Shown here: piece by piece, positions 17,180 to 59,837 of the stretch
Layout of the letters: every line of letters starts with the position of its first letter
Position numbering within the stretch: the stretch's first letter is position 1
Virus record (IMG/VR): IMGVR_UViG_3300037424_000485
Span: 96,001-160,000 of that record
DNA: 64,000 nt
Strand: one strand, 5' to 3'
DNA from: a virus
Lineage: Duplodnaviria; Caudoviricetes
The notes under the pieces: model-generated
What the model was told of the DNA's origin: nothing
Seen by the model: only the letters and a program-made list of their open reading frames with translations
The model's database searches: none
Translations under genes and position numbers: made by a program

Positions 17180-17593
17180 ATGGTTTATAGGGATTCTGAA
17201 GGGGCCGAATGTAATTTGTTACAGATGGTGAAAAGAGAGCCAGAATGGGCGGCATCCAGGGTGATCGAAGGCGATCAGGCTATTAAAAGAGTGTCAGAAT
17301 TAGAGCACACGCTTAAAGAGATAACAACAGACCTACATGATGTGAGATCAGACCTACATGATGTGAGATCAGATCTACATGATGTGAGATCAGATCTATT
17401 ATTGTTTTGTTTATTCATTATCTTCAATGGAAAAGGAGGATTGATGAACATCATAAGAGTAGGTGGATTTATCGCTTGCTTTACAATTTTAATCTTAGGA
17501 GTTTATGACCACAATCTTGTAGAGGCATTAGGATGGGGAGCTGCTTCCCTTTATATGGGATGGGTAGTTGCGAAAGGGTTTCTTAAAGCATAA
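17180..17593 (+). CDS. Hypothetical ORF, probably a readthrough fusion of a coiled-coil gene and a small membrane-protein gene
   Basis: Internal AGGAGG RBS before MNIIRVGG; 21-bp triple repeat inside. Confidence 0.4.
   Translation: MVYRDSEGAECNLLQMVKREPEWAASRVIEGDQAIKRVSELEHTLKEITTDLHDVRSDLHDVRSDLHDVRSDLLLFCLFIIFNGKGGLMNIIRVGGFIACFTILILGVYDHNLVEALGWGAASLYMGWVVAKGFLKA
17330..17398 (+). repeat. 21-bp tandem repeat x3 (LHDVRSD)
   Basis: GA(C/T)CTACATGATGTGAGATCA repeated with no spacers. Confidence 0.85.
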
Positions 17594-17636
17594 CGATGAA
17601 GCTAAAGCTGTGCGCGTATTAGCTTCATCGTTATAT
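17588..17636. mobile_element. Short attC-like inverted repeat (also a possible terminator)
   Basis: GCATAAC-GATGAAGCTAA...TTAGCTTCATC-GTTATAT; ORF stop TAA lies within the AAC box; 49 bp, shorter than canonical attC. Confidence 0.4.
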
Positions 17637-17678
17637 TGTGAATTAAATAATTATTTTTTCATATTTCTTATTTTTGTG

Positions 17679-17707
17679 TTGACAGGTATCAACTCATGTT
17701 GTATTGT
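17679..17707 (+). promoter_or_regulatory. Sigma70-type promoter just after the attC-like site
   Basis: TTGACA-17 nt-TATTGT with AT-rich UP region. Confidence 0.65.
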
Positions 17708-17740
17708 ATTTATAACAGAGAGGGAATAACCCCAAACTAC

Positions 17741-18493: not shown

Positions 18494-18693
18494 ATGTCGT
18501 TTGAATATAAAATTAAGATAACAAGCTGTCGAGAGTGTCCTTACTCGTCTAATAATCAACAGGAGCATAACGACCCTTTCACCAGCACCCCCCTAAATAC
18601 CTACTGGTATTGTAATCAGGGGATAACACTAGGAGCAGGGTAGATATAAGGGACTGTAACAAAATTGCTTATAACTGCCCATTGAGCACATAA
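18494..18693 (+). pseudogene. Small Cys-rich ORF broken by a 1-nt frameshift in a G run (18619-18622)
   Basis: AGGAGG RBS; CRECPY...YWYCN then, in the shifted frame, DNTRSRVDIRDCNKIAYNCPLST-stop at the attC-like site. Confidence 0.4.
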
Positions 18694-18776
18694 TGCCGAA
18701 CTAGCCAGGCCCGGTCTGGTGGATGGAAATAGTTAACGCCGAATTTGACCTGTTCGCGTTTAGTGTCTTGTTAATT
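18688..18776. mobile_element. Degenerate attC-like site(s), possibly two tandem short sites
   Basis: ACATAAT-GCCGA-ACTAGCC..., internal GTTAAC-GCCGA-ATTTGAC, ending GTTTAGT-GTCTT-GTTAATT; GC-rich island followed by a promoter. Confidence 0.45.
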
Positions 18777-19764: not shown

Positions 19765-20103
19765 ATGCGAGAAATACCATGGACTGTAGAAGAGATCAAA
19801 GAGGGGCTTAAAACCAAAGATAAATGGGTTTATAGAGCCATTCTAGCTATCTTCAATCTCCAAACAGATCAAGAGCAGGATAGTGAGGCTACTCTTGATC
19901 ATAATGGCATAGGGTTTAATAGCTTTGATGGACATCTCCTAGGCTCTTATGCAAAACAGATCCAGAGATGGAACAACGATAAGAGTGTTTTGAGATTTCC
20001 AACACCCTTATCAAAGAAGCAAACTTCTATCGCTCGTAATAAGATTATGAAGTATAGTAGTCAACTTGTTAAGATTGCAAATGGAGCTATAATTATTAAT
20101 TAG
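19765..20103 (+). CDS. Conserved-looking hypothetical phage protein
   Basis: RAILAIF..QT..EQ...T...NGIGF...D pattern. Confidence 0.65.
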   Translation: MREIPWTVEEIKEGLKTKDKWVYRAILAIFNLQTDQEQDSEATLDHNGIGFNSFDGHLLGSYAKQIQRWNNDKSVLRFPTPLSKKQTSIARNKIMKYSSQLVKIANGAIIIN

Positions 20104-20668
20104 AAGCATACATTATATTATAAGGTCTAATAATGGTAGTTATAGCAGTATTGACTTTATCAACATAATTATACGGGTCATGATCAAGACCATATTTCAT
20201 AACAGTTCCAGGCCCTCTATTATATGCCAATACAGCATATCTCCAAGGATCTGGATATTTTCTAAATTTATCTAATAGATATGCAAAATAGTCTGCTGAT
20301 AGTTTTATAGCCCATTCATCCATCAACAACAATCTTATGAATATTTTATTATCTGAATATTTTCTATCATCCTTTCGTATGTTTTTAATAACATATCTAG
20401 CTGTTGAGATTTTCATCTGTGCAGTGCCAAAATATCTATTAGAAAAATTATCATCAGCGGGGCCGTATTTATTAATCCCACATGTACTCTCAACAAATTG
20501 AATAGCTTGTATTGTTTCTGGCCATCCAATTTCATCACCGGCCTGTTTAGCAGTATCTAAAATATACTTTTGTTCTTCTGAAGGTTCCCATCCACCCTCT
20601 CCTAATACAATATTAGGAATAATTATCATTAAGATCAATAATATTATTGTTTTCATCATTAACTCCAT
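20096..20668 (-). CDS. Lytic transglycosylase (SLT/lysozyme-like) with signal peptide
   Basis: AIQFVEST, GTAQMK..TA, AVLAYNRGPG, Y..KV motifs. Confidence 0.8.
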   Translation of the reverse strand: MELMMKTIILLILMIIIPNIVLGEGGWEPSEEQKYILDTAKQAGDEIGWPETIQAIQFVESTCGINKYGPADDNFSNRYFGTAQMKISTARYVIKNIRKDDRKYSDNKIFIRLLLMDEWAIKLSADYFAYLLDKFRKYPDPWRYAVLAYNRGPGTVMKYGLDHDPYNYVDKVNTAITTIIRPYNIMYASN

Positions 20669-20733
20669 TCATTATGCATAAACCCATACCTAAAAATATG
20701 GGTTTATTATTTGGTTATAGATATATTTATAAA

Positions 20734-21036
20734 TTATTGTTGATTTATAACTCCTAAATTATATTCAATCGATTTCTCAATATCATCAACAGTTTCGAGT
20801 ATAGTCCTACAATATCCCATATACCCTTCTTTCTCCAATTCTTTTATTTGTCCAGAAGCTTTAACAGTCTCAATTTTTAGAAGATCTTCAACAATAGAAG
20901 ATATACTAGCTGCCATAATTTCAACATCTTTAACATCCACATCTTTTAATGTGAATTCAACTGTTGGTTTTGTTGATTGGTAGTTTCCAGTATTTATGGT
21001 TATAGTTCTGCCAATTGTAATATCTATTTTACTCAT
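20734..21036 (-). CDS. Hypothetical phage protein
   Basis: TINTGNYQS.K pattern; AGGAG RBS. Confidence 0.6.
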   Translation of the reverse strand: MSKIDITIGRTITINTGNYQSTKPTVEFTLKDVDVKDVEIMAASISSIVEDLLKIETVKASGQIKELEKEGYMGYCRTILETVDDIEKSIEYNLGVINQQ

Positions 21037-21046
21037 TCATTTCTCC

Positions 21047-21957
21047 TTAAAAGAAAATATCAAAGCATTTGCTTTGTGTTAGTATTTTTTCACGATTCTG
21101 AGGCTCTAATAAAAATTTTACCTTACCTACGAAAAACTTCTCAATCTGTTTTCCATAATCCAACTGTAGCCCATTTTCAGTGAATTCTTTAGGCCAATCA
21201 TAATAACTAACCACTGTAATCCCAAAGCGATTTCTTTTAAGATATACTACCTTGGCTTTATCCCCTTCTTTTATTCTTTCATATTTGTTCTGAATGTTAA
21301 ATTCTTTTAATAGCATATGATAATTACAAGCACCCTTGACATGATAAGGGGTTCCTTTTATGGCACAGTCATTCTTAATATACTTGCTCATATTATTAAT
21401 ACCTATATTAGCACTCAATTCTTCTGCTGGTGATGCTTCCATACTAATCTTATACTCATCTACATGTTTTCGTATATCATCGTCAGAATGTCCTTTAAGG
21501 ATCATTCCTAGCAGATGTTTTAATGCTTTGCGAAATATTGATGGGCATTCAGACCTAATAATAACAAGACCTTTTACATCTATCTTATCGCATGGCTTTC
21601 CATCATCATCAACTACATTATAACCATACATTTTCTTTTTAATAAAAAGTGCAGTACGACACACAATTTCTTGTTTAAATCCAATAGAAAAATCATCTCT
21701 TTCAACTATAGAGTTATACGTACCTATCTGAGTATTTTCAAACGCCTCATCTTCTACATTTTTTTCTACGATTTTTGATATTCTTTTAACAAAATCAATT
21801 TTATGAACATCGGGTATTTTATCCCAATGCTGTTTTGTAATTCCTTGATCTAAAAGAAAAGCCTCCACCATTATAAATAAACTATCAGTATCGATCTTCT
21901 CTAAATATAGGCGATATAATCAATCATATCGCCTATATTTCTATTCCTTTTTATCAT
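21047..21957 (-). CDS. gp43: Family B DNA polymerase C-terminal subunit (gp43B); motif C interrupted by an 11-nt gap
   Basis: MIKRNRNIGDMIDYIAYI-TAG-AGAAG-ATC then DTDSLFI...KQE...KKKMY...VKGLVIIRS; removing 11 nt gives DYIAYIDTDSLFI and 900 nt in frame. Confidence 0.85.
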
Positions 21958-21973
21958 ATTATTTTTCCTCTTT

Positions 21974-22159
21974 TTAATAATCCAATGGGACTACATTATA
22001 ATTATCCCCGAAACTATGTGTAACAATATATGTATCACCAGTTTTTACATCATACACCATATGTGGCTTATTGTCACCAAACTTTTCTCTCATATCCTTA
22101 TCAGAAGAACATCCAGATAATAATACACCAAGAATGATTATTAGTATTAGTTTATTCAT
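21974..22159 (-). CDS. Small lipoprotein
   Basis: Lipobox LLSGC after a hydrophobic signal. Confidence 0.6.
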   Translation of the reverse strand: MNKLILIIILGVLLSGCSSDKDMREKFGDNKPHMVYDVKTGDTYIVTHSFGDNYNVVPLDY

Positions 22160-22232
22160 AATATCTACCTTTGTGTTTGTTTATTCTCTATAGTGCCTAT
22201 ATTATCCGGTCTAGTTTTCATTATCTCTCCGC

Positions 22233-22454
22233 TCATCGGCCCGAGTTCCAGCCCTCTACATCATCGCTGTAAACCGCGCTCTCGCCGTCTTCTCTCTCGT
22301 CAGCGTAGTTTTCAAACCGGTTCAGGAGCATGTAACCTTTGCCGCATTTTCTCCGCAGGAGGGAGTTTCTGCCGTCATCGGCAACGCTTTCAAAACCCAT
22401 CTTCTTCCAGTCATCGGTTTTGTTGAGTTCGTTTATAATCTGGTCTTTCGTCAT
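22233..22454 (-). CDS. GC-rich small hypothetical protein, probable cassette cargo
   Basis: Visibly higher GC than the genome; GGAG RBS; own promoter. Confidence 0.6.
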   Translation of the reverse strand: MTKDQIINELNKTDDWKKMGFESVADDGRNSLLRRKCGKGYMLLNRFENYADEREDGESAVYSDDVEGWNSGR

Positions 22455-22506
22455 GTTCGTAGTCTCCGGGTTGGGTGGTGGGCTTATTGCCCCTCTCTAT
22501 GATTTA

Positions 22507-22535
22507 AATATATACCTTATTAAACAAGGAGTCAA
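22507..22535 (-). promoter_or_regulatory. Sigma70-type promoter next to attC site A
   Basis: TTGACT-17 nt-TATATT; upstream GTGAATTAAATAA also occurs at about 17638. Confidence 0.65.
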
Positions 22536-22591
22536 TAGAAAAAAGTATATTCTTTTATTTAATTCACTTTTTTTTCTTCGAAGGTCGGCCA

Positions 22592-22654
22592 GACTAACCA
22601 GCGGGTAAACGCGGAACCGCAAAAAGCGCGGAGCCGGTTAACTCCACGTTGGCC
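22592..22654 (+). mobile_element. attC-like site A (63 bp)
   Basis: GACTAAC-CAGCG-GGTAAAC-GCGGAACCGC...GCGGAGCCG-GTTAAC-TCCAC-GTTGGCC imperfect palindrome with bulges. Confidence 0.65.
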
Positions 22655-22656
22655 CG

Positions 22657-22887
22657 CTAGGCGTACTGCACGCCGATATTAAGATGGCAAATTAAATTAA
22701 AAACCTTCCCACATTCACCGCATGTATGGTCAAAAACGCCATCTGTTTTGCCCCGGCCATCGTCAGTACCCCAAATTGTCACAGAAACATCAACATCATC
22801 AATCTCGACATATTCACCACATCCAGGGCATATAACCTCAATAGGATTTTGAAGCCTGTTCATCTCACCCATAATAATTGTCCTCAT
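22657..22887 (-). CDS. GC-rich Zn-ribbon protein between attC sites A and B (inverted cassette ORF)
   Basis: CPGC and CGEC; bounded by GTTGGCC and GCCCAAC. Confidence 0.6.
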   Translation of the reverse strand: MRTIIMGEMNRLQNPIEVICPGCGEYVEIDDVDVSVTIWGTDDGRGKTDGVFDHTCGECGKVFNLICHLNIGVQYA

Positions 22888-22911
22888 AAATAGTAGTTAA
22901 TCGTTGCCGCT

Positions 22912-23005
22912 GCCCAACAAGTCGCTCCACACGGAACGCGGGAAGCTCCGTTTTTGGTTTATCTGCTACTCCCCGGGCCGCGTCCGGTGAGCTAAAACGG
23001 TGTGT
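22912..23005 (+). mobile_element. attC-like site B (94 bp), outer R box degenerate (GGT instead of GTT)
   Basis: GCCCAAC-AAGTC-GCTC(C)AC-A-CGGA(A)CGCGG...CCGCGTCCG-GTGAGC-TAAAAC-GGTGTGT with two extrahelical bases. Confidence 0.7.
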
Positions 23006-23043
23006 CCTATGTGTTCGTCAGATGTAAAGTAGTACATAATATC

Positions 23044-23304
23044 CTACATAGTGAAAAGTTCAGGTGGAGCTATATCATACAGTGATAATGTGTCTTCTCT
23101 ATACCACCACCCTGTAGTGTCATATGGCGATCTATAGACCTCTCTTAGTATATTATTATCTGTTTGTACTAGATAGCCTCTATCCCTCCTAATACTCTTA
23201 ACCACACCAACTTTACCATTGGCATGTGCTATCATATAATCATTCCAATTAGATACATCCCCTAAATTATTTATAGCTACCCTATCACCAACTTTAAATT
23301 TCAT
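23044..23304 (-). CDS. Small SH3/KOW-like protein with C-terminal IAPPELFTM motif
   Basis: MKFKVGDRV...GKVGVV. Confidence 0.55.
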   Translation of the reverse strand: MKFKVGDRVAINNLGDVSNWNDYMIAHANGKVGVVKSIRRDRGYLVQTDNNILREVYRSPYDTTGWWYREDTLSLYDIAPPELFTM

Positions 23305-23627
23305 ACCATCTCCATATCGAAAAGATTTTCTGGAACTATATTAATAAGTAGTATCTCAAGACCTTTCTCATGTATAACAATATCATGTCCATCTTCAAGA
23401 GACACACCAACAATTTCTTGATATGTGTCATTGGTGTGATATGTGTCATCGGAGTGTGATCTAACATCAACAACAATACCTACCTCTCCATTAGATCCAC
23501 GATATCCAATTTTATAATTATGAAGACCCATCATCTCAGCCATGATTTTACATCCAGTGAATATCATCCATCTATTAATAATCTTGACTTTACATCCAGG
23601 TAGTAACTCTATACCATTAATCTTCAT
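23301..23627 (-). CDS. Hypothetical protein with C-terminal IVPENLFDM motif
   Basis: Overlapping operon. Confidence 0.55.
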   Translation of the reverse strand: MKINGIELLPGCKVKIINRWMIFTGCKIMAEMMGLHNYKIGYRGSNGEVGIVVDVRSHSDDTYHTNDTYQEIVGVSLEDGHDIVIHEKGLEILLINIVPENLFDMEMV

Positions 23628-23943
23628 ATAATAAATCCCGTACTGATTTTATAATATTTCCATCTTGGTTATAATAATTATAATACTCATAATCATCATA
23701 TAAATGCAAGAGAGCTGGACACCTAGCAGACTCACCAAACATCTGTACTATCTGCTCAATTCCCTCTGGTGTATGTCTTACTGTACGATGTTTATACCCA
23801 AGTTTGACATATAGTGCATCCAACCATTGATGTACCTCAGTATAAGGTTTACCAAAAAACTCTATACATCTAGCTTCATGCTCTTCTCTCCACATTATAG
23901 ATAAGGCCCAAATAAGAAAATCATTAAACAGATATGGATACAT
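23617..23943 (-). CDS. His-rich hypothetical protein
   Basis: H...C...FG....VH.WLD, HR..RH..EG, H..DD pattern; the true start is probably internal. Confidence 0.55.
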   Translation of the reverse strand: MYPYLFNDFLIWALSIMWREEHEARCIEFFGKPYTEVHQWLDALYVKLGYKHRTVRHTPEGIEQIVQMFGESARCPALLHLYDDYEYYNYYNQDGNIIKSVRDLLYED

Positions 23944-24278
23944 TGATCTAATGCTAATGTATTCCAGAATTTATCATCTTTTGTATGGAGATTATATTTT
24001 ACATAATCCTCGATATCTTCTCTTTTATAAGCATATTTTTTAAAATATGTCCATAGATACTTATCTTGAATACCATGACATAAAACATAAAGCACGACAA
24101 TCCACTGAGGCATATCAATAAAAAATGCGAACACGGCGAATATGATATATATGATACCCATATGGATACCCATACTCACCCAATCATTAGATTTAGTTTC
24201 GGCTACTTCTCTTGATTGTAAATAAAAATCACTAAAAAAGTGTAGAAATACAGCTACATAAATCATCTGACCACCCAA
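23895..24278 (-). CDS. DUF3307-like membrane protein
   Basis: LHF.SDF.LQ, H..., HG..D, DQ..H motifs. Confidence 0.7.
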   Translation of the reverse strand: MGGQMIYVAVFLHFFSDFYLQSREVAETKSNDWVSMGIHMGIIYIIFAVFAFFIDMPQWIVVLYVLCHGIQDKYLWTYFKKYAYKREDIEDYVKYNLHTKDDKFWNTLALDQCIHICLMIFLFGPYL

Positions 24279-24466
24279 AAAAGTAATACTTATTTATTCT
24301 ACTATAAATTATAGTAAAATCCTCTGTTGTTTTTAATATTACATCATCTATACAGAAATAGCAACAAAAATGATTGCCAATGTGCTCATCACTACTATTT
24401 CTTTTCCAAAGATCATACCAGTCGCAGTATTCGCTATGGGATATTTGGTTTCTATCGCCCATTATT

Positions 24467-24940
24467 TCAAAATATCTTTTTTCCATCAAATAACCCCAAA
24501 TTAACACCCTCAAGCAACAATACCTGTTGTGTTTCATTTAAATATTTAAAGGCTGTCTTGTAGTGTACCCATCTCCATCTATCAATTTCTGGCCTTCTTT
24601 GCTCTGTAATCATACAGTAGAATGTACTATCACAAACAGGTGTTTTTTTAATTATACCATCAAACTCATATGCAAAGGCAACTAGTTGTTTTGGGATGTC
24701 AGAATATTTAGAGCATCCAAGCAAGGATCTCCTATACTTAAAACCACCTCTTATGATATCATCACGAAGGATTCCTGTTTCTTCTGTTACTTCCCTCCAT
24801 GCAGCTCTTAATTCGCTCTCACAGGACTCTTTAATTCCTTTTGGAATGCTCCACATTCTAACTGGTATGCCTGTTGGATGCCCTATTAGAATTTGCTTGT
24901 ATTTGTTTATGAGGAAGATCCCACATGTAGTCTTGATCAT
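24467..24940 (-). CDS. NUDIX hydrolase
   Basis: WSIPKG...ESELRAAWREVTEETG Nudix box; PEID..RW. Confidence 0.9.
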   Translation of the reverse strand: MIKTTCGIFLINKYKQILIGHPTGIPVRMWSIPKGIKESCESELRAAWREVTEETGILRDDIIRGGFKYRRSLLGCSKYSDIPKQLVAFAYEFDGIIKKTPVCDSTFYCMITEQRRPEIDRWRWVHYKTAFKYLNETQQVLLLEGVNLGLFDGKKIF

Positions 24941-25173
24941 TTAAGTCTCCACCCATATTTACCATCCTCTGATAAAACTAGTACAAGTGCAAGACCAACT
25001 ATTCCACACAAACCACTACAGAAAGCTATGACTAAAGACACGAAAATATCATATTTATACTGTTTGTCTTTAAGACTCTCGTATTCTCCTTGCCAGAATG
25101 CGAACATAAGACCATATGATATAAAAGACACAATAGGTATAGTAATTAAATATAATATAATTAGATATTTCAT
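24937..25173 (-). CDS. Small two-TM membrane protein
   Basis: Two hydrophobic stretches. Confidence 0.55.
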   Translation of the reverse strand: MKYLIILYLITIPIVSFISYGLMFAFWQGEYESLKDKQYKYDIFVSLVIAFCSGLCGIVGLALVLVLSEDGKYGWRLK

Positions 25174-25544: not shown

Positions 25545-25603
25545 AATGTTTTATCTCATTGATGATATTTAATAACTCTTCATTAGGATTATTTAACAGC
25601 TTG

Positions 25604-25924
25604 TTAAACACCGTATTTAGCCTTGAGCTTTTCCAACTGACAAAGCTCTTGATTCTCAATAAATTTTCGGTGGTTATCTTCGTTATTCAGCCGTGCGGCT
25701 TCCTCGGCATCGGTTTCCAACCGCTTATAGCTTATTTTCACCTCAAACTGACTGCCATCGTAATAGGTTGACGTACTGCAATCTATATTTATGGTCGCCT
25801 TGTACTCATCAGGCACAAGGGCAAATTTATCAGACCACCATTTCAAAAACTCTTCCGGGCTACTCGGCAGGTCATAGGCACAAGACTCGGCTTCAAAAAC
25901 AATAACTTTAATTTCCTTTTTCAT
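25604..25924 (-). CDS. Hypothetical protein carried by the inserted cassette
   Basis: GGAGG RBS; stop lies at the GTTAAAC junction; GC-richer. Confidence 0.65.
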   Translation of the reverse strand: MKKEIKVIVFEAESCAYDLPSSPEEFLKWWSDKFALVPDEYKATINIDCSTSTYYDGSQFEVKISYKRLETDAEEAARLNNEDNHRKFIENQELCQLEKLKAKYGV

Positions 25925-25979
25925 AACTTCCTCCGTACATATGTGTTTATCCAGACATCAACTGAGCTTGGTGTTAGCA
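25921..25979 (+). mobile_element. Degenerate attC-like site closing the inserted cassette
   Basis: ...CTGAGC-TTGGT-GTTAGCA right arm; left arm TCATAAC-TT-CCTCCGT eroded into the ORF RBS. Confidence 0.5.
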
Positions 25980-26069
25980 TATCTCTGACCATTAAGAATG
26001 GTATGTCTACACATGATGTTATAGCCTCTGCCATAATACCATAAAATTTTCTAATAATCAATAACTTTA

Positions 26070-26895: not shown

Positions 26896-28752
26896 TTATT
26901 TATCATATATCTTAATCTCATTGATGATATTTAATAACTCTTCATTAGGATTATTTAACAGCTTGTTAGCATATCTCTGACCATCAAGAATGGTATGCCT
27001 ACCACATGATGTTATAGCCTCTGCCATGTTAATATTAAAATATCTACTATATGGTACTGCCATAATACCATAGATAGAGTTAATGAGAATCTTAAAAGCC
27101 CATTGTAGATCATATTTTTGTTTTGCTTTATCTAATATTTTCTTCTTAGATTTCCCATCTTTTATAGATAACGATTTTTCGTAAAGAAGTGACATTTTGT
27201 TCTTCTCTTCTTTACGCTTAATAAATACCATTTTCTCTATTGTAGGTATAACACCTCTTTTCCCATTTTTAAACATACTACCACATGGTGCTATAGATAA
27301 CAATTTCTTTTCTATAGATTTATTAAATATATCTAATTTTTGACCATCGATATATTGAACCATCCCATCTTTTAATAAATAAAAAGGTGGAAATTTTTTA
27401 TTCCTTGCATGATCAACTACTATATCATAAAATGGCCTAGTTTCATCGTCTTTATTATGAATCCCTATACCAGCATTATAATCTACTACATGGTTTTCAT
27501 TAAAACCAATAATTCTACCATAATATGTTTCATTTGATATATTTAATATAATAATATGACTTGGGTATGAGCTTGTTATATCAAGATCCACTACCCAAGG
27601 ATGCAGTCCTTTATATGGTTCTTTAACAAAAGCGGCTGGAAACCATTCTTTATCTCCCCCCATCAATCTAGGAGCTGCTAGATTATTTCTACGATAGTAT
27701 ACTAACATAAGACCTTCAACAAGACCAACAGTTGTGTTATACATATCCATAGGGACACGACAAAGAAGTGTGAGTGATTGTATTAACGATAAATAACCGC
27801 ACTTCTTCTCTATATTTTGTATTAGAAGAGCATCGTTTATGTTATATTCACAATACAGCTGCCAATTTTTCATATACAACTCTTGTAGTGTGCCGTATTC
27901 TCCATAGTCTATCTTACCACCAAGATTTTCTACTTCAGCAACATGGTCTAGTTTATTACTTTCAAGGTTGTTTGTGGTATACCATCTATAAACACTCATA
28001 TAATCGAGTAGTGTTACACCAGCAATATTAATATGCTGAACCCCAACTCTATCAACATAAGAATTTACATTATTAATGGGCGATAACTTCTTATAAAGCT
28101 TGGTATCATCCCCAAATAATACTTTGGTGCGATTTATGATATAAGGGAGATCGAAACCCCCTCTGACTTTTGCTTTTCTATCATCACAATAAAACCATCC
28201 GGTTACAACATCACACATATTTGTGTGTTTCCAGTTAAAATATTGTGTCAGTAGGTCATATTCATCTTTACAGTGATGATAAGTGAGATTTTCTATACCT
28301 TTGTCATTAACAAAAGGATGCAGTCCAAATGATTGGATGCCTCTGTTATGAGCTATGGTAATAATTGTGATAGGCCATTTAGCCTCGTCTGGTTTTGGAA
28401 ACTCGTCAGCACTATGAACTTCTATATCTTCAAAATGAATGACAAGATGCGGCACTTCCATATCATCATCAGATATACCGCTATATCTTTCAGATAAAAA
28501 TTGGATAACAGGGTTAACTTCGTTCTCATAACATTGTTTATTTTTATCTATAAAAGACTTATATTGGGCGTAATTACTAAATGATTTCCTTCCTACTGAA
28601 ACTCCATCAATAGTTTTAACATCTTCATCTTCATAGTGTTTTAAAAAAACAAAAGGTGAAAAATCTATACAATCATAGAATCTTTCACCTTTTATCGACT
28701 CCCATAAATGGAGTCTTGACTGTCTGGTATCATAATGTGCATTTGTAAACAT
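26896..28752 (-). CDS. gp43: Family B DNA polymerase N-terminal subunit (gp43A: exonuclease, motifs A and B)
   Basis: EDIEV, FDLPYI.NR, YN..D exonuclease motifs; DLDITSSYPS (A); KILINSIYG (B); ends before motif C. Confidence 0.93.
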   Translation of the reverse strand: MFTNAHYDTRQSRLHLWESIKGERFYDCIDFSPFVFLKHYEDEDVKTIDGVSVGRKSFSNYAQYKSFIDKNKQCYENEVNPVIQFLSERYSGISDDDMEVPHLVIHFEDIEVHSADEFPKPDEAKWPITIITIAHNRGIQSFGLHPFVNDKGIENLTYHHCKDEYDLLTQYFNWKHTNMCDVVTGWFYCDDRKAKVRGGFDLPYIINRTKVLFGDDTKLYKKLSPINNVNSYVDRVGVQHINIAGVTLLDYMSVYRWYTTNNLESNKLDHVAEVENLGGKIDYGEYGTLQELYMKNWQLYCEYNINDALLIQNIEKKCGYLSLIQSLTLLCRVPMDMYNTTVGLVEGLMLVYYRRNNLAAPRLMGGDKEWFPAAFVKEPYKGLHPWVVDLDITSSYPSHIIILNISNETYYGRIIGFNENHVVDYNAGIGIHNKDDETRPFYDIVVDHARNKKFPPFYLLKDGMVQYIDGQKLDIFNKSIEKKLLSIAPCGSMFKNGKRGVIPTIEKMVFIKRKEEKNKMSLLYEKSLSIKDGKSKKKILDKAKQKYDLQWAFKILINSIYGIMAVPYSRYFNINMAEAITSCGRHTILDGQRYANKLLNNPNEELLNIINEIKIYDK

Positions 28753-43447: not shown

Positions 43448-44428
43448 TTATCCAAGCATTTTATCTAGCTCATCAAGAATATCATCATCATCACCAGCAT
43501 CACCAGCATCACCAGCATCACCAGCATCATCATCTTCCTTAATCTCTGCTTTCTTCTCTGCTTTCTTTTTCTCTTGTTTAGGAGGATCAAAATTTACATC
43601 ATCCTTCTCTTCTTTTTCTACCTTAGCTGAAAATCTTTTATTAAATTCATTTTCAACATCATCCCATACCATCTCTTCTCTGAGAAGTTTTTTATGCTCA
43701 TCTGGTGAAAGCTCAAGACTCTTAATATATTCCTCAAGAGATATACGAGATGCCATAAGCTCTTCAAGCTCTTTGTCAGAACCTGCAATAGAAGACGGTT
43801 TACGTGCAAACATAGAAGGAGTATAGTCAGGCCATACCTTTTGATTTGCATCTGGTTTCTTAGCTTCTATTTTTAACAAGAAGTTAAAACCATCTTCTTC
43901 TGGACTAAAAATTAACTGACCGTATCCGTTTTTCTTATCTGTAATTTCAGATTTGAACATCTTCTCAACTGTGGGTGGAAATTCATATAGTCTAACAGTT
44001 TTATTTACTTTACGGGCATCATCTGTCTGTTCTGTATCTCTGGGATCATTAAGAATGAATACGTTAGATACATACTTTTGCTTGCGTTTGTAATCGTTTC
44101 CTTTTTTCTTATCAGAGGCGGTTCCTTTATACAGAATCTGTGCAATCTGACACCATGGGCAATAACAATCTAAACCATGTGTTTTTGGACAAAGAAAGAA
44201 CATCCATTTTTCCCCAACTAGGAACATATGATAGAAATAGCCTTTATAACCACTACCGTCTGTATCAGGAAGAAGTCTGAATTCATACTCTTTTGGTTTT
44301 CCTACACTACCCATTGTAGGTGAGATCCACTTCTTATAAAAGGTTTGGTTCTCGGTGCTTGAATCTTGTTCTGTTGATTTTTGTTCATCCCATTGTTTAA
44401 ATTTTTTGTTGTCTAGCCATTTACTCAT
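43448..44428 (-). CDS. gp32: Single-stranded DNA-binding protein (gp32-like)
   Basis: Y.FRLLP, FYH, CPKTHG...CPWC, KY.SNV..L.DP, R.YEF....K, GFNF.LK, acidic tail. Confidence 0.88.
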   Translation of the reverse strand: MSKWLDNKKFKQWDEQKSTEQDSSTENQTFYKKWISPTMGSVGKPKEYEFRLLPDTDGSGYKGYFYHMFLVGEKWMFFLCPKTHGLDCYCPWCQIAQILYKGTASDKKKGNDYKRKQKYVSNVFILNDPRDTEQTDDARKVNKTVRLYEFPPTVEKMFKSEITDKKNGYGQLIFSPEEDGFNFLLKIEAKKPDANQKVWPDYTPSMFARKPSSIAGSDKELEELMASRISLEEYIKSLELSPDEHKKLLREEMVWDDVENEFNKRFSAKVEKEEKDDVNFDPPKQEKKKAEKKAEIKEDDDAGDAGDAGDAGDDDDILDELDKMLG

Positions 44429-57317: not shown

Positions 57318-59837
57318 TTACCCTAGTTTAGATTCTAATATTTTAATTTTATTATTAAGTTCTTTTATAGCCTCTATTAATAGAGGGACTAATTTTTCAT
57401 ATTGAACAGTCATATAATTTTCACCTGATTTAGATGATATATATCCTAACTCTGCATCTCTATTAATATCAAATGGAGCTGGTTTTACTACTTGAGGGAG
57501 AATTAATTTTACCTCTTGAGCACTGATACCAACCTCTATATCATCACTCATATATCCATATGATTTTGCTATACTATTAGCAGTATAATAAAAGCCATTT
57601 AGGGTACTGATCATATCAAGAGCGTTTTCAATATTACCGATCTTATTTTTAAGTCTCATATCAGAAAAATAAGCAGTTATATTTCCAGTAGCTGTAATAT
57701 CCCCTGTAGTAGCAAAACCTGCACTGGCTGATTCTACTGTTATGTCATGAGATCCATCAAATTGAATACCACCTATAGTACGAGCTGTTTCAAGGGTTGT
57801 AGCAGTTGATGAATTACCTACAAGATCGCCGGTAAATGTTGTAGTTGTAAGTATACCGGCAGCAGAGTTAAAAGTTAAATTTGTACCTGTATGTATTTGC
57901 TGTATTCCCTCAGGACTATTAAAATATGCTACATAACAGCTAGTATCTGCACTCTCATCAAATGATGTAATAGTGATAGCATTCCCAGATAAAGATTGTA
58001 CATCTAACAGTTCTGACTGTGTTAAGTGATAATACTCACCAGGGCCTCCTCCTTGTATGCTACCAAGGCCATTATGGAGAACAGGTGTTGATGATTGCAG
58101 TAATTGGGAAAAAGGACTTTGAATTTCAGTTATATTTGAAGCACCTTGTAAATAAATTACCTTCCCTACTAATTGAGATCCTACACCTGTTGCTTCTGGT
58201 GGTAAAATTCCTGGTATCTCTGCCACTTGAGCATCTGTTAGTGTTGCGTACTGATCTTGTCCATATACAGAATATAAAGAAGATGAAGTACCTATAATTA
58301 AATAAATCCAATGAACACCGTAATATCCGGCTGTCATTGCTGAAAGTGTCCCTGTCCCGACATCAAAATAATTAACATCTATATCTGTTTGAGATGGCGT
58401 TCTTACCCAATCACCTCCCGACATATACAATGTAGTGAATGTATCCGCTGCACTAGTATCAAATGATGGATGGGTTCTTTTAATATTAGCTAAGTAAAAA
58501 ATACCAGCTGTTAGGTTCAATCTAAGAGCACTAGTACCTTCTGTTAGAACTGTACCTCCTGGTTGATGTTCATACCCATTAACAAAGAAGTCTTTTCTTG
58601 AGTTATTTGCCTGATAATTAAGACCATATTCTCTCATATCAACAATATGTAGAGTATTTTCTATTCTATTAACAATCCATATAGGAACTTTTGTATATCC
58701 AGCCTCTACAGGCACTGAAGTTTCACATGTAATTCTGGTAGTACCCATATTCCAATCAGCAAATAAATAGTTAGGTATATTATCTACCAATGATGATATA
58801 CCACCAATACCTGTAGTTCCAGATGGTACACTGAATTCTTCAAGTGATGTTGTGTATATATCAAGTCCTGTTCTTAATAATGCATTACCAGCGGATATAG
58901 TTACAGTTCCATTTCCATTATCAATAAGATCAAATCCACTAAGTGGTGTTGATGACATTACATGATCAAAATATGCCTGAACACTTGAAAGACTAGGTGT
59001 TTCTGAATGTGTTGGATAATCTATAGCTGATGTTGGCCATGTATAATATAGTATATTATCTACATTAACCTGTACACTTTCAATTTCATTTTGTAATATA
59101 ATAGCAGATACACTAAGTACATTTATATCATAATTATTAGCATCTATAGCTGCTGATAGAAAATCTGTATTTAACTCTAAAGAATATACGCTTGATGATA
59201 GAGGCATCATATCAATAATTGATTGTGTATTAGCATCTATAGCTGCTGATAGAAATGCTGTATATGCTGTTAAATAACTACCATCTACAGTTAAATTATC
59301 AATAGATGCTGATAGAAATTCAGTATTTAAATTAAGAGTATTTAGATGATTATCACTTACCAGTTTATTCCTAATAGTATCTATACTACCATCTACAATA
59401 CTATATATATTATGAGCACCTTCATTATAGCTAGTTCCTGTTACATGCTCAGTCCAAATATTTGCATAGTAGTTACTAACCACCCTATCTTTGGTTTGAC
59501 TATTATCTTTAACATCAACAGGATAATAATCAAGACTCTCATCAAAAACATCTACGTAATCTATATGACCTTTTGATATCCCTGCTTTATCCCATGCTAT
59601 TTTTATTTTTTGAGATGAATCATATCCGCCATCTTCTTGTAAATCTGCAATCCAGAATTCAAAAAATCCATTAGATAATGTTACTACTTGACCAACAGCA
59701 TCAGGCGATCCGCCATCTTCTTGATGATATATAGTAGCTTGTGTTTCACTACCTGCAAGATACACCTGTACAGTAGCACCTTCAATTGGTTGTCCTTCTC
59801 TGTTTATCAAATACTGCCATACATGTGCTCTAGCCAT
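57318..59837 (-). CDS. Tail fibre with C-terminal intramolecular chaperone (peptidase S74)
   Basis: TARTIGG..FDGS.DIT, SDMRLKNKI..I.NAL, G.SAQEV...LP..V, V.YEKLVPLLIEAIKEL. Confidence 0.85.
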   Translation of the reverse strand: MARAHVWQYLINREGQPIEGATVQVYLAGSETQATIYHQEDGGSPDAVGQVVTLSNGFFEFWIADLQEDGGYDSSQKIKIAWDKAGISKGHIDYVDVFDESLDYYPVDVKDNSQTKDRVVSNYYANIWTEHVTGTSYNEGAHNIYSIVDGSIDTIRNKLVSDNHLNTLNLNTEFLSASIDNLTVDGSYLTAYTAFLSAAIDANTQSIIDMMPLSSSVYSLELNTDFLSAAIDANNYDINVLSVSAIILQNEIESVQVNVDNILYYTWPTSAIDYPTHSETPSLSSVQAYFDHVMSSTPLSGFDLIDNGNGTVTISAGNALLRTGLDIYTTSLEEFSVPSGTTGIGGISSLVDNIPNYLFADWNMGTTRITCETSVPVEAGYTKVPIWIVNRIENTLHIVDMREYGLNYQANNSRKDFFVNGYEHQPGGTVLTEGTSALRLNLTAGIFYLANIKRTHPSFDTSAADTFTTLYMSGGDWVRTPSQTDIDVNYFDVGTGTLSAMTAGYYGVHWIYLIIGTSSSLYSVYGQDQYATLTDAQVAEIPGILPPEATGVGSQLVGKVIYLQGASNITEIQSPFSQLLQSSTPVLHNGLGSIQGGGPGEYYHLTQSELLDVQSLSGNAITITSFDESADTSCYVAYFNSPEGIQQIHTGTNLTFNSAAGILTTTTFTGDLVGNSSTATTLETARTIGGIQFDGSHDITVESASAGFATTGDITATGNITAYFSDMRLKNKIGNIENALDMISTLNGFYYTANSIAKSYGYMSDDIEVGISAQEVKLILPQVVKPAPFDINRDAELGYISSKSGENYMTVQYEKLVPLLIEAIKELNNKIKILESKLG

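Follow-up and report, generated by a model that had tools for sequence, protein, structure and literature searches.

An integron-type pair of attC sites in a GC-rich island of an uncultured T4-like phage

A virus record assembled from sediment DNA (IMG/VR record IMGVR_UViG_3300037424_000485) represents an uncultured, distant T4-like phage of jumbo size (204 kb), in which a GC-rich island of 0.8 kb lies between the two halves of a split DNA polymerase gene. A first-pass annotation of a 64,000-nt stretch of this record (the window, i.e. bases 96001-160000 of 204,431 bp; positions below are those of the window) had described the island as a miniature array of integron cassettes, with two attC-like sites flanking GC-rich open reading frames (ORFs). 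Our analysis confirms, at the level of sequence, that the integron-type attC pair is real: both sites, which we refer to as site A (22592-22654, + strand) and site B (22912-23005, + strand), are upheld together with the cassette that encodes the small protein P0002, whereas the cassette status of the neighbouring gene, P0001, is unproven. We suggest, with a probability of roughly 0.68, that the island between the polymerase halves is a mosaic of two foreign pieces, one derived from an integron array and the other a phage moron. The first piece (approximately 22579-23005) would come from an integron cassette array and would comprise site A, a complete 351-nt cassette and the attC of that cassette, site B; the second (22215-22578) would be an ordinary phage "moron" in which P0001 stands behind a sigma-70-type promoter module that recurs both in this phage and in other contigs.

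Sites A and B and the cassette between them

To search for attC sites we built our own covariance models. The seed was a 60-nt attC, which proved to be 100% identical to plasmid R100 downstream of aadA1 and so was confirmed as real. IntI1 of the R100 locus was then used to gather 79 class-1 integron loci from different species, attCs were taken from these loci by a strict structural rule, and 17 of them were aligned to build model R1, in which pairs are limited to the R-box and the L-box. Run on the class-1 loci, R1 found 95 attCs (57-112 nt, all on the array strand), and from these 95, none of which stems from the phage window, we built a broader model, R2. The phage was searched with both models with filters off and on both strands. 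The best R1 match in the window is site B (22912-23005, 18.2 bits, E 0.021). With R2, site B again ranks first in the window (28.4 bits, E 1.2e-5) and site A ranks second (22592-22654, 20.3 bits, E 0.0026), both matches spanning the full length of the model, and the third-best match falls to 11.3 bits with E>1. Over the remaining 140 kb no R2 match in the record exceeds 12 bits. Thus the whole-genome search that the first-pass annotation had put forward as a check returns sites A and B as the two best matches, with the same end points to the nucleotide. Besides sites A and B, approximately 11 matches in the window have E<=10. This is close to the expected count, and the null model therefore suits a genome this rich in AT.

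Controls with R2 indicate how these scores are to be read. In 952 kb of integron-bearing bacterial loci, searched on two strands (1.9 Mb), there were 111 matches of at least 20.3 bits, all on the array strand and only a single one outside a class-1 array, which puts the measured rate of false positives at 20 bits or more no higher than about 1 per 1.9 Mb. A chance origin of the two attC matches is excluded. Because 16 real attCs from outside the training set of R2 give 20-31 bits, the scores of sites A and B are those of real, if divergent, attCs. Arrays that are not of class 1 are found by R2 as well, with 11, 5 and 3 sites, respectively, in each of three IMG/VR contigs (26-60 bits). The orientation assigned by R2 is sound, since the ORF lies on the top strand called by the model in 21 of 27 cassettes of environmental arrays (from a set of 38 contigs, see below) and in all cassettes of the class-1 controls. 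A search of 20000-25000 against Rfam at permissive thresholds gave no match.

The anatomy of the two sites is as follows. Site B is 94 nt long and consists of R'' GCCCAAC, the spacer AAGTC, an L stem, an unpaired centre of 36 nt, and R' GGTGTGT. Its L stem has 15 bp (22924-22941 with 22978-22992) and three single-base bulges, all on the 5' arm; the arm GCTC[C]AC[A]CGGA[A]CGCGG pairs with CCGCG TCCG GT GAGC, which bears out the 5-nt spacer, the extra C and the bulged A of the first description. Site A is an attC-type site of 63 nt with R'' GACTAAC, a 5-nt spacer, L'' and L' arms, the spacer CAC, and R' GTTGGCC; the AAC and GTT triplets are present, each R box has one deviation, and the L''/L' arms align like those of site B, with two non-standard pairs. 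In the L arms of both sites the extrahelical bases are on the 5' arm, as they are in real attCs. Neither site has another copy anywhere in the genome, and A and B are not repeats of one another.

The closest known sites are those of an environmental and class-1 family of attCs of 55-60 nt that have the form GCCCAAC-NNGTC-GCTCCA...TGAGC...GTTRRRY (e.g. L017:7448-7504 and L107:3798-3853, where L017 and L107 are contigs). Site A has the overall plan of this family. Site B has the same R'', the 5-nt spacer, the L'' with the extra C, and the L' arm; it differs from the family in its R' and in its unpaired centre, which is approximately 40 nt longer. The first 19 nt of site B and its arm CCGGTGAGCT (10 nt) are identical to the attC at L107:3798-3853. 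The 19-mer occurs in 38 metagenome contigs, where nearly all copies are R2 attC matches and many lie within arrays, and the attC family of site B is common in cassette arrays of soil and sediment.

As had been pointed out in the first-pass annotation, the R box of site B reads GGTGTGT, with GGT replacing GTT; the crossover triplet is absent, although R'' is perfect. Because of the GGT at the crossover triplet and the long unpaired centre, we think that site B is probably crippled, a relic. The step in GC content down to phage-like DNA falls at the R' of site B, where there may have been a mutation of R' or a truncation of the site beyond L'. Site A, in which AAC and GTT are kept, may still serve an integron integrase of the host as substrate. 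Our expectation, then, is that site A may recombine and that site B would not. The phage region is contained in two sediment metagenomes from different studies, and a contig from the second, independent sediment run (X2) covers 22707-23120 with 0 differences, indicating that in the population site B is stable, as is the junction at which it meets phage DNA. The X2 contigs have low coverage and none extends over 21974-22492, so they carry no information on the presence of P0001.

Sites A and B are on the same strand, 258 nt apart, and delimit one complete cassette of 351 nt and 47% GC (22649-22999, + strand), which runs from the TTGGCC of the site A R' to the G of the site B R'. The segment between the sites starts with GTTGGCC (22648-22654) and ends with GCCCAAC (22912-22918), complementary at six of seven positions, as cassette logic predicts and as had been noted before. 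The absence of an integrase, first reported for the window, extends to the whole 204-kb record: neither TIGR02249 nor PF00589 has a match, and there is no tyrosine recombinase. In keeping with this, no complete integron (intI, attI and Pc beside the array) is found in the record. IntegronFinder 2 defines a CALIN (a cluster of attC sites without an integron integrase) as at least two clustered attC sites with no integron integrase nearby (PMC9024848), and since there are two same-strand attCs 258 nt apart and no integrase in the record, the locus falls under this definition. The earlier description of a CALIN-like array in a lytic-type phage thus holds for the two attCs, the missing integrase and the T4-like genome, but only one cassette can be delimited.

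The two pieces of the island

The stretch 22201-23100 is the longest in the 204-kb genome with more than 45% GC, and it is not uniform: 22215-22498 has 51% GC, the 80 nt from 22499 to 22578 have 17.5%, and 22579-23005 has 50%, between flanks of 29% and 34%. These steps in GC content coincide with the borders of the island. The ORFs of P0001 (50.5% GC) and P0002 (43.5%) are, as first described, richer in GC than the genome (32.3%), and both are on the - strand, like the neighbouring phage genes and opposite to the attC top strand.

The cassette gene (22657-22887, - strand) encodes P0002, a small four-Cys zinc-ribbon protein, and is antisense to the polarity of the attCs. Its product is probably a protein of 71 aa that starts at a second ATG (22872), because a GAGGA ribosome-binding site precedes this ATG and the family alignment starts at residue 6. 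The family has approximately 25 proteins of about 70-78 aa with invariant C15, C18, C51 and C54, and the two relatives that can be placed are in phage-like contigs, where PolA/helicase or SNF2 helicase genes are their neighbours in tight operons. An AlphaFold2 (AF2) model of P0002 (pLDDT 78) predicts a beta-rich zinc ribbon. No significant match to P0002 was found in a structure search of the PDB, and the ESM Atlas gave no usable match in structure searches. We set aside an ORF of 55 aa on the + strand (22726-22893), which is sense to the attC polarity and looks like the antisense shadow of P0002. As the orientation of P0002 is that of phage transcription, read-through from the upstream phage genes would probably express it. 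The first piece may have entered the phage through illegitimate or homologous exchange, with a host array or another mobile element as partner, or an integrase may have inserted it. No donor array was identified, as none of the attC-bearing loci matched P0001, P0002 or IntI1 in TBLASTN.

P0001 behaves differently. Its block (22215-22498, - strand) consists of an ORF of 73 aa (22233-22454), a 5' untranslated region of 45 nt, and a 3' flank of approximately 15 nt. Ten relatives of the protein (68-95% identity) lie on contigs with 39-46% GC and rows of small ORFs, and R2 finds no attC in the six of these contigs for which DNA was at hand (all matches <10 bits). The closest contig (L006) is 87% identical in DNA over 22215-22498 only, the homology stopping before site A. 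A 1,819-nt contig from a third sediment run (X3) matches 22223-22485 at 96.6% DNA identity and has unlike flanks on both sides. Because the homology is confined to these limits and occurs in other contexts, P0001 is a separately mobile gene, and the 96.6% identical copy with unrelated flanks indicates that it moves between genomes in the sediment habitat. The claim that P0001 is itself a cassette gene is not borne out, as its relatives occur in other contexts without attC and the left edge of the island has no cassette boundary. P0001 matches no Pfam or PHROG family. Its AF2 model has a pLDDT of 82, and a RelE-like fold was dropped as a candidate, since this best PDB match has a Z of 4.2, below noise. 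We note that a truncated homologue (P0012, 56 aa, 74% identity) is encoded on an 8,576-nt contig (Logan SRR22387929) that also encodes a Zot-family assembly ATPase; this contig is probably from a filamentous phage.

Between P0001 and site A lies an AT-rich promoter module (22499-22578, - strand, 17.5% GC as above) that contains the 13-mer GTGAATTAAATAA (22567-22555) and a promoter, found by pattern scan, with the form TTGACT-17-TATATT (22535-22507, - strand); this match lies upstream of P0001 and agrees with the first-pass annotation, which had given one of the ORFs its own promoter. Just past the module, at the start of the P0001 5' untranslated region, is the conserved AGAGAGGG (22502-22495, - strand), and further on is a small hairpin, GGGCTTATTGCCC (22480-22492, - strand). 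The order on the - strand is therefore the P0002 stop codon, the site A hairpin, GTGAATTAAATAA, TTGACT-17-TATATT, AGAGAGGG, the small hairpin and P0001. Only two copies of the 13-mer exist in the 204 kb, each between a hairpin and a TTGAC promoter. The second is in a homologous module at 17588-17720 (+ strand) that contains a hairpin, GTGAATTAAATAA at 17638, a TTGACA promoter, and AGAGAGGG; this module and 22654-22495 (- strand) have in common the 13-mer, TTGAC(A/T)-17-TAnnnT and AGAGAGGG. Contigs from two other runs match 22479-22574 only and have unlike flanks.

This arrangement bears on whether the locus might instead be an array of two cassettes, the first made up of P0001, with its own promoter, and site A, and the second of P0002 and site B. 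P0001 is as GC-rich as the rest of the island and directly beside site A, and a GTT (22213-22215) stands close to where the homology block ends on the left. The heptamer at 22213, however, is GTTTTCA, which neither fits GTTRRRY nor is complementary to GACTAAC, the R'' of site A; the 80 nt that separate P0001 from site A have 17.5% GC and belong to a module that recurs in the phage; the closest copies of P0001 are limited to 22215-22498 or 22223-22485; and the six contigs searched have no attC beside its relatives. We therefore regard a two-cassette array as quite improbable. A reading without any integron is that the two sites are GC-rich terminators or regulatory hairpins of imported phage genes that have come to resemble attC by convergence. 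A pattern scan does detect a terminator-like hairpin with a T5 run (22627-22648, - strand) inside site A, on the coding strand and directly 3' of the P0002 stop codon; a hairpin followed by a promoter is the design of the PeSL (promoter/stem-loop) modules of T4-type phages (PMC4122927); the folding scores of both sites are weak (see below); and another phage hairpin, at 17588-17636, also has AAC...GTT ends. Yet in the minimum free energy (MFE) structure of the RNA of the site A region (-32.9 kcal/mol, z -1.4) the U5 run lies in the loop of a longer hairpin, which makes a terminator function of the site A hairpin uncertain, and the native hairpin at 17588-17636 reaches only 8.8 bits with R2. 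Convergence would also have to account for bulges that, like those of real attCs, are on the 5' arm, for the exact match of site B to a widespread attC family over 19 nt and 10 nt, and for two matches at a false-positive rate of at most about 1 per 1.9 Mb. We consider this origin highly improbable.

A third possibility concerns activity rather than origin. If host integron integrases used both attCs during infection to insert, excise and swap cassettes, then the phage would gain the cassette pool of its host and become a cassette vector. In favour of such a platform, five of six attCs from phages, virulent ones included, recombined with IntI1 in a published assay (Qi et al. 2023, Front Microbiol; PMC9892861), the AAC and GTT triplets of site A are canonical and its canonical fold is accessible, arrays from sediment and soil are rich in the attC family of site B, and the phage-like contig L107, with genes for a primase and a D5 helicase, bears 11 attCs of this same family. 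Against it, in site B the crossover triplet GTT is missing and 36 nt in the centre are unpaired, the two sites enclose one cassette only, and the locus does not differ between two samples, in which no other cassette content was observed. An active platform appears unlikely to us, and we favour the mosaic of an array-derived piece and a moron.

A number of observations weigh against this mosaic reading. R1 and R2 are our own models and not those of IntegronFinder, their E-values rest on a shortened calibration, and site A is listed by R2 only and not by the narrower R1. There is no GTTRRRY cassette boundary on the left side of the island. A cassette ORF that is antisense to attC is the minority arrangement in environmental arrays (6/27). 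The relatives of P0002 are in ordinary phage operons with no attC nearby, so P0002 is not known elsewhere as a cassette gene. No relative with an "empty site" was found among the five related contigs L089-L093, and searches for related loci with the polymerase N-terminal half and with the P0002 family found nothing in viral contigs; for this reason composition alone is the guide to the extent of the island and to how it was inserted. Finally, the first-pass annotation had proposed folding of the bottom strands as a check, and in this check the two sites fold no better than shuffled sequences (z -1.7 for site A and -0.3 for site B), weakly by comparison with 66 class-1 attCs (median z -4.4). 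The canonical attC folds of sites A and B are nevertheless within 0.1-3.4 kcal/mol of the MFE (1.6-3.4 kcal/mol for site A), and the 11 sites of the array in L107 have a median z of -1.8 and a range, -5.3 to +0.85, that covers both sites. As this related and real array folds as weakly, we dropped weak z-scores as evidence against attC; folding energy neither supports nor excludes function.

The polymerase gap and the phage record

The IMG/VR record has 32.3% GC and an estimated completeness of 85%. The island is located, as first reported, in the gap of 5,024 nt that separates the N-terminal half of a family-B DNA polymerase (PolB; 26896-28752, - strand, 618 aa; Pfam DNA_pol_B_exo1 and DNA_pol_B, phrog_262 at 2e-107) from its C-terminal half (21047-21871, - strand, 274 aa; Pfam DNA_pol_B, phrog_262 at 4e-42), the two halves forming the upstream and downstream borders, respectively, of a variable region. 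The best match to the split polymerase among 50,697 phage records is just 28% identical. Stand-alone C-terminal halves have 98 relatives in metagenomes, each of approximately 290 aa, and the split is therefore a feature of a clade and not an artefact of assembly. In the relative represented by L092/L093 the gap between the PolB halves holds quite different genes, which makes the gap a hyperplastic region, and the genes upstream of the PolB C-terminal half are unrelated in L090 to L093. Neither BLASTN of the island nor TBLASTN of P0001 and P0002 gave a match in the 50,697 phage records.

Between the island and the PolB C-terminal half is an ORF of 61 aa (21974-22159, - strand) with a lipoprotein-type N terminus; its PHROG matches, to the families of Cor superinfection-exclusion and Rz-like spanin proteins, are weak. 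The ORF is also conserved in L089, the closest relative contig, which has 82% DNA identity and ends within this lipoprotein gene. Elsewhere in the window, two weak model matches (43990-44069 and 58002-58027, + strand) have scores at background level (10-12 bits, E ~1-3). They have an R-box-like TCTAACAGTT in common and end in GTTAGAT and GTTAAGT, respectively, and the common word may mark a native phage motif. A candidate cassette at 25553-26043 and a candidate shrunken attC-like hairpin at 18688-18776 are likewise at background with R2, at 11.3 and 9.1 bits.

Related arrays and comparison with known systems

L107 (IMG/VR contig IMGVR_UViG_3300037067_014230, 7.7 kb, 48% GC) has 11 attC matches to R2, all on one strand and with 26-40 bits, in an array (L107:57-4179) that directly follows genes for a DnaG-type primase and a D5_N helicase (L107:4174-7654). 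In eight of its ten cassettes a small ORF is on the strand opposite to the attC, one of which encodes a phage-type Dam methyltransferase. L107 gives the impression of a phage or satellite whose large antisense array is of the attC family to which site B belongs. Two further IMG/VR contigs, L110 (69% GC) and L115 (59% GC), have arrays of 5 and 3 strong attC matches and are putatively viral. The word GCCCAACNNGTCGCTCCA was tried and rejected as a marker of attC arrays, as it occurs in 16 viral contigs, near chance expectation, with real arrays in 3 only.

Taken together, a cassette gene from a phage family, its antisense orientation and an attC family that is common in arrays point to cassette traffic between integrons and phages in both directions. 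One might go further and propose that some phages keep attC arrays between antisense accessory genes and that host integrases trade these genes from phage to phage, in which case the integron cassette pool and the pool of phage accessory genes would be one connected market. Two cases are behind this idea, the P0002 cassette and the 11-site array of L107 (8/10 antisense), and we regard it as distinctly unlikely, a long shot.

The promoter module of P0001 resembles the PeSL composite terminator/promoter modules described in T4-type phages (Arbiol et al. 2010, PMC2839356; Comeau et al. 2014, PMC4122927). As in those systems, the locus lies in a hyperplastic region of a T4-like genome, a gene is followed by a hairpin, an early-type promoter and the next small gene, and the module (13-mer, TTGAC promoter, AGAGAGGG) recurs in the genome and in other contigs. 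Unlike PeSL, it has two copies only, and its hairpin is the attC-type site A rather than a conserved phage stem-loop. Integron-type sites and promoter/stem-loop modules, two different devices for gene shuffling, would thus be neighbours in one hyperplastic region.

Loot et al. described integrase-mediated insertion of cassettes at genomic attG sites, 5'-G|WT-3' (bioRxiv 10.1101/2022.09.11.507474). The island is like such insertions in that a cassette and an attC lie outside an integron platform, in a genome without attI. Its right junction, however, is G|GT, which does not fit G|WT, and no left junction fits G|TTRRRY, so the involvement of an integrase in the insertion is not shown.

The closest parallel is with the 17 CALINs reported in phages, virulent ones included, by Qi et al. 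(2023; PMC9892861), and because CALINs in virulent phages have been described in that work, our finding is a further case of a known kind. The locus resembles those CALINs in having at least two attCs, no integrase, small cargo genes and a lytic-type genome, and the phages of that study likewise show mosaic borders without clean core sites. It differs in that the attCs of Qi et al. were assayed for recombination, whereas sites A and B are described from sequence; in its setting, an uncultured 204-kb T4-like sediment phage with two sites and one cassette; and in having a cassette ORF of a phage zinc-ribbon family that is antisense to attC, and one broken R' (GGT). It thereby adds an independent and well-controlled case to the young observation of integron sites in lytic phages, and it goes beyond the published cases in that the cassette gene is of a phage family, is antisense to attC, and has an attC of a family that is abundant in soil and sediment arrays and also forms the 11-site array in the phage-like L107.

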